Positions 22,498-25,342 of a stretch of 64,000 nucleotides of DNA are shown in pieces. Each line of letters opens with the position of its first letter. Position 1 is the first letter of the stretch. The DNA comes from Bacilli bacterium. GTDB lineage: Bacteria; Bacillota_I; Bacilli_A; ML615J-28; CAG-698. The position numbers and the translations under genes are program-made. Where the stretch lies: assembly GCA_050953085.1 (NCBI GenBank), contig JBMNLX010000003.1, positions 57,757 through 121,756 on the forward strand, read 5' to 3'. The notes under the pieces are model-generated. The model searched no databases. It worked only from the letters and a program-made list of their open reading frames with translations, and was not told the origin of the DNA.

Positions 22498-23193
22498 TTA
22501 TAAATCTTTGTCTAAGAAAAATAATAAATTGAATGAAAAAAGCAACACGATTAATAACAATGCATGGTATGGATGATAAGGAAAATTTCCTTCCGTATCG
22601 AGATAAAGTAAAAAACAGTTCAAAATACGGCCTAAACCTTCATTTTCCTCATTGGTGATTACTGAAAAAAGGTGGAGGAAAAAAACGAAAATAATAACAT
22701 AATTATTTTTGAGGGCTTGATAAAACGCCAAGGCCGCCAAACCATAGTAGACGGCGTAAATAAACAAACAAAAAAATGAAAAAACAACCCTTGCGTCAAA
22801 AACATATTTCGCATAAAAAGCGACCCCGGCAAAATTAAATAGCAAATACAAAAGCAAAACAAATCCCGCCTGTAACAATACTACCGTATGCAATTTCGTG
22901 GTAAAGTATTTTACCCGCGAGACATCGCAGGAAATTAGATAATAATACTGGCTGTTTTTCGCGGAGAAGAAATCACAGACCAAGAATATTGACGAGAAAA
23001 CGGTCATCGTTTTAACCGTTGTAAAAGATGTCCGAAAATAAATGGCGTTGTTTTCCCGGTAACCGAGCGCGGCGTCAACGGCGGCGGCGTTAATCGCGCA
23101 AACAAAAAAAGCGATGACGACGGCCGCCGTGAGAATCACGACCGCGCGTTTGTTCAATAGATAACTAAGATGACATTTGATTAAGGACATCAT
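22498..23193 (-). CDS. ABC-2 type transporter permease (about 6 TM)
   Basis: 231-aa polytopic membrane protein that overlaps the upstream ABC ATPase gene by 29 nt. AT-rich. Confidence 0.55.
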   Translation of the reverse strand: MMSLIKCHLSYLLNKRAVVILTAAVVIAFFVCAINAAAVDAALGYRENNAIYFRTSFTTVKTMTVFSSIFLVCDFFSAKNSQYYYLISCDVSRVKYFTTKLHTVVLLQAGFVLLLYLLFNFAGVAFYAKYVFDARVVFSFFCLFIYAVYYGLAALAFYQALKNNYVIIFVFFLHLFSVITNEENEGLGRILNCFLLYLDTEGNFPYHPYHALLLIVLLFSFNLLFFLDKDL

Positions 23194-23776
23194 CTTCCTC
23201 GCCAGCCAAAAGAATTATTTCATCGCCCGGATACAGATCGGGATAGTGAGTGGAAATAATCAATGTCTTTCCCGCTTCGCGCAACCGTCGAACCAAGCTC
23301 AGGAAACGCGACCGCGACTCGGCGTCGAGCCCGCTCATCGGCTCGTCGAACAAGTACAGATCAACGTCGGAAAGAAGGGTTTGTATTATCAGGACTTTTT
23401 GGCGCATTCCTTTGGACAATTCCTTGATTTTCTTTGTCCCGTCAACATTCCACTCTTCCAGTAAAGACATAATTTTCTCCCCGGCGGCGGCGGTTTTTTT
23501 GATTTTACCGATATTGGCAAGAAACGCGTACACGGTTACCGTCTCCGGCAGGGCGATTTTTTCCGGCAAAAACGCGTAGCGCGCCGGCGAGCGGTAGAAC
23601 CTGCCCGCGGAAAAGCGAAGCAACCCGATAACGCCCTTAATTAACGTTGTTTTCCCGCTGCCGTTTTCGCCGACCAAAAGGTAGATCTTCCCGCTTTCGA
23701 AACCTAAGGAAAGATTAGAAAAAACAGTTTTTCGCCGGTATTTTTTCGCGACTCCTCTCAGTTCAATAATTTTCAT
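23165..23776 (-). CDS. ABC transporter ATP-binding protein
   Basis: 203 aa with Walker A GENGSGKTTL, ABC signature LSKGMRQKV and Walker B LYLFDEPMSGLD. Confidence 0.85.
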   Translation of the reverse strand: MKIIELRGVAKKYRRKTVFSNLSLGFESGKIYLLVGENGSGKTTLIKGVIGLLRFSAGRFYRSPARYAFLPEKIALPETVTVYAFLANIGKIKKTAAAGEKIMSLLEEWNVDGTKKIKELSKGMRQKVLIIQTLLSDVDLYLFDEPMSGLDAESRSRFLSLVRRLREAGKTLIISTHYPDLYPGDEIILLAGEEDDVLNQMSS

Positions 23777-24731
23777 AGGTGCGAAATTCTATATTCTGTA
23801 ACGCTTTTAGCGATATCTCCCGCGTTTTAAAGAAAGTAAAATCATCGCAGACGAGTCTCCGGGATTCGCCTGCGATCGTGTAATCGACTGCGATTCCGAA
23901 CTTGTTCACGGGAAGCAGGCGGCGGTATTTCAACGGCAGTAAAAAGCACGCTCTTTCGCCGGCGGGAAGGCGGTAATTAAAAGCGGCGGCGGCGCCGTTA
24001 AAGTAATCATAAGCGTACCCCAGAATCAAATCAATCTCGCAATCGGGCCGGTATTCAAGCGCATCTGACGCGACCCGCTCGGAAAAGGAAAACGCGACGT
24101 CCGGCACGAGCGGGCTGATCGCGGTGATAAAGATATCGCTTTCCGTGTCGTTTTTAATACCGATATCGACCGCGGCTAGCGTTTTACGGCCGTCGAGAAC
24201 GTTGACCAGGCCTTTGAGTTTCCGAACCGATAGACAATCGTCGATAAAGGAGGCGACTTTATTGTAACTGAAAGAGCCGACCGGCAACCGCACGGAGGCG
24301 CCGCACCGGTAATTAATTGTAAGTTCAGCATCCGCGATTTCAAAAAAATACTCCGTCGTCGGATGGAAATCGATAAGAAACGTAAAATAATATAAGTAAT
24401 AGGTATTATCGCCAAGCGGTAAAGAATCGCCGCTGAATTCCACGCTTTCAACCTTTAGTTTCAAGTATTCTCCGTCATCATTGGCAAGATACGCCTCCGT
24501 TATATTGCAATCCTCGCCCGCGAAGGATTTTTTCGTGTCGATTAAAATATCGAAGGTCACAAAATCATCCTCGCCGAGCAAACTGACGCTGTTATGCGCC
24601 CGCAAAACGGCGCCAATAGTTACCGTTCGCGCCATTGGGCGGCGCGTCGCCGCCCAAATGACGCAGCCCGCGAAAATAACCGCGAAAGCGCCCGCGTAGA
24701 GCCATTTTTTCATTCGAGCGGCTCCTCGCAA
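23763..24731 (-). CDS. Membrane-anchored extracytoplasmic protein of unknown function
   Basis: 322 aa with a single N-terminal TM/signal anchor (WLYAGAFAVIFAGCVIWAA). The remainder looks beta-rich. No recognisable domain. Confidence 0.5.
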   Translation of the reverse strand: MRGAARMKKWLYAGAFAVIFAGCVIWAATRRPMARTVTIGAVLRAHNSVSLLGEDDFVTFDILIDTKKSFAGEDCNITEAYLANDDGEYLKLKVESVEFSGDSLPLGDNTYYLYYFTFLIDFHPTTEYFFEIADAELTINYRCGASVRLPVGSFSYNKVASFIDDCLSVRKLKGLVNVLDGRKTLAAVDIGIKNDTESDIFITAISPLVPDVAFSFSERVASDALEYRPDCEIDLILGYAYDYFNGAAAAFNYRLPAGERACFLLPLKYRRLLPVNKFGIAVDYTIAGESRRLVCDDFTFFKTREISLKALQNIEFRTYENY

Positions 24732-25342
24732 AGTTCGTAATATGCGGTGACGATATCAATATATTCCCAGGTGCCCTTTTTAATCAAGATCCCAAAAACA
24801 TAATGCTTGCTCACGCCGTTCGTGACCAAAGCCTCGCCGGTGATTTTATAAGTCAGGCGGGTGTAGGGTTTGACGACGACGGAAAAGGAATTGTCCTCAA
24901 CCTTAGTGTGCGCGGTTTTTTTCGTGACCTCGCGCCGGTACTCCCCCTGCAATTTGCAATCGATTTGCTTTATTTTTGAACCGAAACTCCCGGATATGCT
25001 CCCCGTTGTTTTAACGCTCCTCTCGATATAATCGGTCTCCTTAATGCTGTAATCAAATTTTATCGGGTCGGAAGTGCGGTTAACGCGCGCGAAGATTACT
25101 TCGCCGACATAATCGGCCTCGCTGTAGATATTCATAAAATGATGTTTCCATCCCCAAAAGCATCTCCTTCCCGTCGAGGCAAAAGCTTTATCCAGCTCGC
25201 TTGAAGTCATGTTGATAAGGAGTTTCCCCTTCTCTTTAAAGGTGAGTTCGGTGATATCGGGGTGGCCGGTTTTCGTATATGCGCCGACACTGAAATTCAC
25301 GATAAAAATAGAAATAAAAATAACGATCAATGCTTTTTTCAT
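24710..25342 (-). CDS. Secreted protein of unknown function
   Basis: 210 aa with the N-terminal signal peptide MKKALIVIFISIFIVNFSVGAY. First gene of a tightly overlapping 4-gene operon together with the ABC ATPase and permease. Confidence 0.5.
   Translation of the reverse strand: MKKALIVIFISIFIVNFSVGAYTKTGHPDITELTFKEKGKLLINMTSSELDKAFASTGRRCFWGWKHHFMNIYSEADYVGEVIFARVNRTSDPIKFDYSIKETDYIERSVKTTGSISGSFGSKIKQIDCKLQGEYRREVTKKTAHTKVEDNSFSVVVKPYTRLTYKITGEALVTNGVSKHYVFGILIKKGTWEYIDIVTAYYELCEEPLE

Follow-up and report, generated by a model that had tools for sequence, protein, structure and literature searches.

The window analyzed here, a stretch of 64,000 nucleotides from a Bacilli bacterium (GenBank assembly GCA_050953085.1, contig JBMNLX010000003.1), contains four co-directional genes on the minus strand, designated A, B, C and D (Table 1), which form a tightly and translationally coupled operon with its own promoter. 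The operon is vertically inherited and lineage-specific in a clade of uncultured Bacilli and was not recently acquired. The reading we favor, albeit tentatively, is that it encodes a secreted membrane-active protein (A) together with a dedicated self-protection or handling system (B, C and D). According to this proposal, A would be an exported membrane-active protein, probably an aerolysin-type pore module. B would sit on the exterior of the membrane, tethered through its N-terminal helix, display two immunoglobulin (Ig)-like sandwiches and bind A at the surface of the producer, while C and D, an ATP-binding cassette (ABC) ATPase and its candidate permease, would use ATP to keep the producer bilayer free of A or of its insertion-competent segment. 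This logic would resemble that of LanI with LanFEG, of Pmt or of the lactococcin-972 ABC system. Pore formation by A, the target of A and a protective function of B, C and D are inferred.

Protein A, its partners and their coupling

Protein A is a beta-rich protein that carries a hydrophobic signal-like segment at residues 4-22, with Ala21-Tyr22 conserved, in agreement with the 210 amino acid (aa) signal-peptide protein of the original prediction. It is predicted to be exported by the Sec pathway, leaving about 190 aa of mature protein, and because a lipobox-like motif was present in just 3 of 113 A-family members, A is expected to be normally soluble once exported. Searches of Pfam, NCBIfam, PADLOC and PHROGs returned no match for either A or B. 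The original statement that neither protein has a recognizable domain was upheld for Pfam and NCBIfam; it missed the resemblance of A to aerolysin-type pore formers. An AlphaFold2 model of A based on 10 sequences was unusable, with a predicted local distance difference test (pLDDT) score of 40.

The resemblance of A to pore formers was detected with a profile of 113 full-length family members that was searched against all solved-structure sequences. All of the top seven matches (7 of 7) were aerolysin/ETX-MTX2-type pore formers, namely Dln1 (4zno; E 0.0042), parasporin-2 (2ztb; E 0.0044), lamprey LIP (5zu4), 7y78, 7y79, Mpp75Aa (7ml9) and Cry23Aa (4rhz), with E values of 0.004-0.5 that are each marginal alone and with alignments spanning profile positions about 87-171. 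Since the aligned region is Ser/Thr/Lys-rich and periodic, controls were run, and the matches proved to be both replicated and direction-specific. A subset of 38 family sequences again placed the same seven pore formers on top, while the reversed subset recovered none of them and had the beta-helix of T4 gp5 as its best match (E 0.15). With a disjoint set of 45 distant members, Dln1, Cry23Aa, parasporin-2 and LIP occupied ranks 2-5. The Pfam Aerolysin model (PF01117) matched two of the 113 family members (best E 7e-4).

Closer examination of the family alignment revealed the arrangement that is characteristic of aerolysins, a stem loop between Ser/Thr-rich tracts with an Asn before it and a V-P-A-type motif after it. 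Among the 113 members, an unbroken two-residue alternation of hydrophobic and polar positions extends over residues 108-125, followed by a Lys-Lys turn (125-126) and a return strand (127-141), and this putative amphipathic hairpin is the part of A that aligned to Dln1, parasporin-2 and LIP. Residue N88, the sole invariant residue of the family, aligned with an Asn of the same three proteins, and V157-x-P159 with their V-P-P or V-P-A (P159 was present in 93 of 113 members). In aerolysin the stem loop sits between strands beta2 and beta3, and the most conserved positions of the family include Asn206 and Val285-Pro286-Ala287 at the top of the double barrel (PMC5654971). From the alignment we infer that N88 and V157-x-P159 are the equivalents of these positions. 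A search of plasmid sequences for ETX/MTX2 relatives with a parasporin-2 fragment returned no match. Although individually marginal, these matches suggest that A most likely represents a stand-alone aerolysin-type pore-forming module.

Protein C was confirmed as the small 203-aa ABC ATPase of the original prediction (PF00005, E 9.5e-19). Its Walker A (GENGSGKTT), signature (LSKGMRQK) and Walker B (LYLFDEP, with D144 and E145) motifs as well as His177 were invariant in five orthologues, and the Q-loop position was occupied by an invariant Glu72 in place of the expected Gln (P71-E72, LPE[KR]) in five of five aligned orthologues. By sequence, its family assignment is generic. The top NCBIfam match was the zinc-importer ATPase AztA, followed by the lactococcin-972 model TIGR03608 (95 bits; cut-off 254.85), and the scores with the lantibiotic protection model TIGR03740 (84.5 bits; cut-off 309.75) and the PmtA model (70 bits; cut-off 350) were lower still. 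The best curated-family and solved-structure matches (AztA, lactococcin-972 group, lantibiotic protection, DrrA, NosF, ABCA and ABCF) all fell far below the family cut-offs. In PADLOC, A, B and D matched 0 families, while C had only generic ATPase matches.

Protein D had been predicted to be a 231-aa ABC-2 permease with six transmembrane (TM) segments. Its polytopic nature was borne out, with short loops, five strong hydropathy segments and a weaker sixth around residues 62-82 as read from the sequence, and complete orthologous genes encode 227-248 aa; no curated ABC-2 model matched. A profile of nine D orthologues matched a single solved-structure protein, PmtD of Staphylococcus aureus (E 0.01, positions 3-231 versus 6-247), with which D shares an sRvxYxxxK motif and a C-terminal KKD(L/I), and the reversed-sequence profile had 0 matches among solved structures at E <= 10. 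These results point, weakly but specifically, to C and D being a small ABC-2-like exporter of the immunity type.

The likeness to LanFE/bacitracin-type immunity exporters noted in the original prediction is a reasonable analogy in view of the PmtD match and the family scores of C, but membership in these groups was not borne out. The scores remained far below the cut-offs, and lantibiotic genes, two-component systems and FtsX-type permeases were absent from the window and from the loci of the relatives, and none of the loci contained a histidine kinase or response regulator within 8 kb. Bce-type systems are recognized by a two-component system and an FtsX-type permease with 10 TM segments and a large extracellular domain, whereas D has only 231 aa and short loops.

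Protein B consists of a membrane anchor followed by two Ig-like sandwiches in its AlphaFold2 model (pLDDT 68.7, predicted template modeling score 0.58), and its single N-terminal TM segment agrees with the membrane-anchored extracytoplasmic protein predicted originally, the length of 322 aa being most likely replaced by 316 aa (see below). Fold searches returned only generic Ig-like/FnIII matches indicating no function, the best of which included RbmA, WxLIP, AgI/II and chaperones, i.e. Ig-like proteins related to adhesins, matrix and pili. The B family profile matched nothing among the solved-structure sequences. Conserved motifs of the family were IPLKY and DDFxFF, and the orthologue in locus L017 contains a lipobox-like motif, LVAC, as read from its sequence.

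Orthologues in 30 related loci show that all four genes are real. The open reading frames (ORFs) as listed overlap by 22, 14 and 29 nt, as the original prediction had it, and their coordinates confirmed the four co-directional minus-strand frames at 25342..22498. The first overlap most likely amounts to only 4 nt (ATGA). Because a Shine-Dalgarno sequence (GAGGAG) lies 8 nt upstream of ATG 24713 and all B orthologues have 315-319 aa and an N-terminal MKK, B most likely starts at this codon and encodes 316 aa. The TTG start at 24731 (322 aa, 22-nt overlap) lacks a Shine-Dalgarno sequence and disagrees with the orthologue lengths, which makes it unlikely. D probably starts at its second Met, at 23190.

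Table 1. Coordinates of the operon, its signals and the adjoining features in the window
Feature	Position	Strand	Description
Gene A	25342..24710	minus	210 aa; predicted Sec-type exported, beta-rich; candidate stand-alone aerolysin-like pore-forming module
Putative stem loop of A	24920..25021	minus	amphipathic beta-hairpin (residues 108-141), Ser/Thr-rich tracts either side
Gene B	24713..23763 (listed start 24731)	minus	316 aa; anchored in the membrane at its N terminus; two Ig-like beta-sandwiches on the extracytoplasmic side (modelled)
Gene C	23776..23165	minus	203 aa; minimal ABC ATPase; 14-nt overlap with B
Gene D	23193..22498	minus	230/231 aa; small polytopic PmtD-like permease; type II (ABC-2-like) exporter candidate
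Shine-Dalgarno sequence of A	25350..25354	minus	GGAGG, 7 nt upstream of ATG; invariant in 6 orthologous loci
Operon promoter, sigma-70-type	25363..25391	minus	TTGACG, 17 nt, GATAAT; 10/12 consensus matches
Terminator-like hairpin and T-run	25399..25422	minus	end of pepP, upstream boundary of the module; 8-bp stem, 5 GC pairs, then TTTTTTTTTG
Decayed ISLre2/UPF0236-family insertion sequence	21378..22425	plus	1,048 bp; outside the module, between D and the infC promoter; lineage-specific
infC-rpmI-rplT promoter	21331..21359	minus	downstream boundary; TTGACA, 17 nt, TATAAT; 12/12 matches
L20 leader of infC-rpmI-rplT	21180..21309	minus	Rfam RF00558, 59.7 bits, E 2.3e-10

Distribution and inheritance of the operon

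Word-based (k-mer) homologue searches found 11 relatives for A, 7 for B and 2 for D, all in metagenome-assembled genomes (MAGs) labelled Acholeplasmataceae, Tenericutes or Bacilli, and badly underestimate the families. An exhaustive profile search with A yielded 158 clusters at 50% identity, nearly all of them full-length with 205-225 aa; a metagenome scan with a narrow alignment recovered only close relatives. The 30 related loci were fetched and scored with hidden Markov models of the four families. With the exception of L019, the order A-B-C-D was found in every locus with enough downstream sequence, including some relatives with only 23-36% identity to A. In the usual setting, shared by close, middle and several distant relatives and seen down to about 20% identity, the operon is preceded by a CDF cation-efflux gene, pgm and pepP and followed by infC-rpmI-rplT-Wzy_C. 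Other settings placed it between mnmA and pyk, between a patatin gene and glmS, after a parA-like gene, or before glmS-glmM-glmU (L023). Identities to relatives at close and middle range were 79, 75, 68 and 54% for A and 67, 64, 60 and 41% for the ATPase.

In locus L019 (7709..10959), which comes from a distant relative, the genes after the A homologue encode first a 446-aa polytopic membrane protein with a C-terminal LytTR DNA-binding domain and then a DrrAB-type ABC-2 exporter. B, C and D are thus replaced, the exporter being canonical and non-orthologous, and the locus is still found beside infC. Because A is kept beside a non-orthologous exporter in this locus, its link to an exporter survives a swap of partners, which suggests that the link is functional rather than accidental.

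The original prediction described the module as markedly more AT-rich than its surroundings and considered this, together with the neighboring transposase fragments, consistent with horizontal acquisition. The GC contents of A (0.453), B (0.499) and C (0.484) are at the background of the window (0.485), and only D is lower (0.378). Similarly, GC at third codon positions (GC3) was 0.58 in A, B and C, 0.555 in pepP and 0.627 in pgm, while D (0.444) equals infC (0.443). D is enriched in Phe, Leu, Ile and Tyr. The AT-rich parts are only D and the adjoining insertion sequence (IS) remnant.

ISLre2 transposase fragments do adjoin D, as stated originally and confirmed by ISLre2/UPF0236 matches. The IS contains two such fragments between terminal inverted repeats of 28 nt (89% complementary) and is flanked by a direct repeat of about 10 bp, CTTTTATTTG. 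Because it has its own inverted repeats and target-site duplication, the IS is independent of the module and represents a separate decayed insertion in the intergenic spacer rather than an island border. It was not present at this position in any of the fetched loci of relatives that reach past D.

Horizontal acquisition is contradicted by these observations. Homologues of A were absent from plasmid, phage and IMG/VR collections, and no tRNA genes were found in the window. Deviant composition, a patchy distribution and mobility or tRNA genes at the borders, by which a genomic island is recognized, were not found. Vertical synteny across relatives, which the original prediction had named as an observation that would speak against it, was found in the survey of related loci. 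Based on conserved synteny, background GC and the absence of A from mobile-element collections, the operon is vertically inherited.

One of the related loci, L021 (7001..9753, GCA_025563055.1), contained called genes with in-frame stops under table 11, and its translation did not yield the query. TGA may be decoded as Trp in this lineage (code 4).

Known systems and rival explanations

Among characterized systems, PmtCD exports the membrane-damaging phenol-soluble modulins (PSMs), confers immunity on the producer and adopts the fold of a type II exporter, its six transmembrane helices being compact (PMC7527219); PSM export and producer protection are also mentioned in passages of PMC9974410 and PMC12623860. 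Like D, the permease of staphylococcal PmtABCD (PmtCD structures 6xjh and 9q1y) has about 240 aa and six TM helices. Both systems are vertically inherited and both serve an endogenous membrane-active product of the core genome, which in the case of our module is a candidate. In contrast, Pmt comprises two ATPase/permease pairs, with an extra cytosolic domain in PmtC (PMC7527219), and lacks an anchored Ig-like partner, whereas the module has a single pair and B, and C scored below the PmtA cut-off. The candidate cargo or partner in the module would be a 20-kDa Sec-exported beta-protein, unlike the short peptides of Pmt. PSMs, the cargo of Pmt, are short alpha-helical peptides that are not known to carry signal peptides.

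With the aerolysin/ETX-MTX2 family, A shares the amphipathic hairpin between Ser/Thr-rich tracts, the Asn and the V-x-P motif. It differs in having no separate receptor-binding domain, in its mature length of about 190 aa, in failing the Pfam models and in sharing its operon with genes for an ABC exporter and an anchored Ig-like protein, and pore formation by A is only predicted. In contrast to aerolysin-family proteins on virulence plasmids, A is passed on vertically, in Bacilli that are free-living or come from digesters.

The lantibiotic immunity proteins LanI and LanFEG (NisI/NisFEG) follow the same logic, in that an anchored beta-rich binder and an ABC-2-type exporter guard the membrane of the producer. 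C scored below the TIGR03740 cut-off, and the neighbors of the module are pepP, pgm, CDF, infC, rpmI and rplT, with no lantibiotic genes among them. The lactococcin 972 operon likewise starts with a gene for a Sec-exported beta-rich protein followed by ABC genes. Lactococcin 972 itself is a 66-aa lipid II binder, to which A, at three times the size, shows no sequence relationship. The permease of that system is large and of the FtsX type, and C scored below the TIGR03608 cut-off. LptB2FG-LptC-LptA, an architectural analogue only, unites an exported soluble protein, an N-terminally anchored one, an ABC ATPase and a six-TM type II exporter permease. LptB2FG has been grouped with the type II exporters (PMC7527219). 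No Lpt similarity was found in the module, the anchored B is Ig-like and not a beta-jellyroll, and the organism is assumed to be monoderm from the Bacilli labels.

Because A resembles aerolysin-type pore formers, the likeliest object of the exporter is an endogenous exported protein and not an external antibiotic. That the exporter was instead horizontally acquired and, in the LanFE/bacitracin manner, confers immunity to external antimicrobial peptides or senses them, A and B being accessory proteins for sensing or binding, is quite improbable. C does score with the lactococcin-972, lantibiotic-protection and PmtA models, D resembles PmtD of a system that has been linked to raised resistance to host antimicrobial peptides (PMC7527219), and lipid II-related targets exist in an organism that synthesizes peptidoglycan. 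All of these scores are far below the cut-offs, however, and the top match of C is AztA. Furthermore, the genes that usually accompany such exporters (lantibiotic genes, two-component systems, FtsX-type permeases) are absent from the window and the relatives, synteny and GC contradict acquisition, as does the lack of A homologues in mobile-element collections, and the highly conserved exported protein that is the constant first gene would be left unexplained.

A housekeeping envelope role, either as carrier and bridge or as a non-lytic surface protein, is a serious rival. In the carrier version, C and D would extract a lipid, glycolipid or lipoprotein in the manner of Lpt or Lol, with the anchored B as a bridge and A as a soluble carrier in the wall zone, and the aerolysin likeness of A would reflect merely a long amphipathic beta-sheet protein. 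The operon is indeed core-like, vertically inherited over deep divergence and usually located beside pgm-pepP and infC, or beside glmS-glmM-glmU in L023. Among close relatives no component is better conserved than A, and the set of exported, anchored, ATPase and six-TM proteins parallels lptA, lptC, lptB and lptFG. Peptidoglycan is made, as indicated by a class A penicillin-binding protein (PBP) at 38109..40025, and a Wzy_C protein is encoded downstream of rplT. We nevertheless consider this version unlikely, as A and B showed no sequence or fold likeness to LptA, LptC, LolA or MCE-type carriers, B is plain tandem Ig-like with no beta-jellyroll bridge, and the only specific similarities that were found point to pore formers and a toxin exporter. 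In the other version, to which we assign a rather low probability, A would be a surface or matrix protein whose aerolysin-like or other beta fold serves adhesion or assembly, anchored by B, with C and D supporting its export and no self-protection involved. HA3 of the botulinum complexes has a role in adhesion. It has been grouped with the aerolysin-like family (PMC5654971), and the high conservation of A as well as the adhesin, matrix and pilus-related Ig-like proteins among the fold matches of B would fit such a function. On the other hand, a family-wide amphipathic hairpin of 2 x 15 residues with a polar turn suits membrane insertion rather than adhesion, and joint action of the four proteins is indicated by the tight coupling of translation with an ATPase and a permease.

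Several observations weigh against the self-protection proposal itself. For A, neither PF01117 (Aerolysin) nor PF03318 (ETX_MTX2) matched the window protein at E <= 1, and the profile matches to aerolysins are marginal, are strongly biased in composition and extend over only about 85 of some 190 mature residues. For D, no match was found in Pfam, NCBIfam or PHROGs, the ABC-2 Pfam models failing except for one orthologue that reached ABC2_membrane_2 at E 3.8. The match to PmtD (18.8 bits, E 0.01) carries a strong hydrophobic bias, and a comparison of D with the canonical ABC-2 permease of L019 by hhalign gave a probability of 0.2%, i.e. no similarity. No target, receptor-binding domain or regulator was evident. 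At close and middle range, conservation among the four proteins is highest for A, and the operon, located beside translation genes, has the character of a core gene set; because of this conservation and core-like behavior, a housekeeping envelope role fits better than a weapon in an arms race. ABC exporters expel peptides and lipids, and we know of none that acts on a 20-kDa beta-protein.

Within the self-protection proposal, the stricter version, in which A is a genuine aerolysin-type pore former, secreted by this clade as a bacteriocin-like or predatory weapon or as a regulated self-pore, with B, C and D as its cognate immunity or handling system, appears doubtful. To our knowledge, a beta-pore-forming toxin has not previously been seen encoded together with its own ABC-exporter immunity module. 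We found no literature linking aerolysin-like proteins to ABC-type immunity in bacteria, none mentioning Acholeplasma together with aerolysin-type pore formers, and no description of the combination of A with an Ig-like anchor and a Pmt-like exporter.

Boundaries, neighboring features and significance

The operon is delimited by transcription signals on both sides (Table 1). In the aligned orthologous loci, the terminator-like hairpin that closes pepP retains its stem in altered form, and the -10 region of the operon promoter, TAATATAT, is invariant in six of them. Downstream, where a gene for a small peptide precursor was sought, the spacer between D and infC measures about 100-470 bp in the relatives (150 bp in L001) and is probably largely occupied there by the L20 leader, which spans about 130 nt in the window. 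In one relative (L008, 10973..15463) a 1496-aa Flg_new-repeat protein is encoded between D and infC. Ribosomal protein L20 has 119 aa in the close relatives of the window and 190-225 aa in L018, L019, L021 and L022, where it carries a C-terminal Rho_N or HeH-like extension.

The class A PBP encoded on the plus strand of the window combines transglycosylase and transpeptidase, though related MAGs are labelled Acholeplasmataceae or Tenericutes. Because of this gene the organism is predicted to make peptidoglycan, and a wall-less Mollicute host, which would exclude lipid II-directed peptides, was ruled out. The window also includes a single uninterrupted ORF of 2375 aa (50679..57806, minus strand) with the full set of RpoB domains at residues 28-1142 followed by the full set of RpoC domains at 1170-2270, an apparent rpoB-rpoC fusion. 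Such fusions occur in Helicobacter and Wolbachia, and we know of none from Bacilli. A glycogen cluster (2384..13861, minus strand) encodes an alpha-amylase-family enzyme, glycogen phosphorylase, glycogen synthase, two GlgC/GlgD-like nucleotidyltransferases, a branching enzyme and a 4-alpha-glucanotransferase, of which a second copy is located 45 kb from the cluster (59305..60765, minus strand). A large surface protein near the locus, encoded at 40234..42162 on the minus strand, is an HtrA-like protease with three Big_2 Ig-like domains.

If the favored reading is correct, the aerolysin family would extend to a minimal module, Sec-exported and about 190 aa long, that has no receptor-binding domain and belongs to the core genome of an uncultured lineage. 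It would also provide a protein pore former with dedicated self-protection by an ABC exporter and an anchored binder, systems that have so far been found for peptides such as lantibiotics and PSMs, and would make it testable how producers with an exposed membrane escape their own beta-pore formers. The compact pore scaffold could possibly be of interest for nanopores. Even if A is non-lytic, three families for which Pfam and NCBIfam hold no model (A, B and D), traveling with a minimal ABC ATPase, would gain their first functional context.

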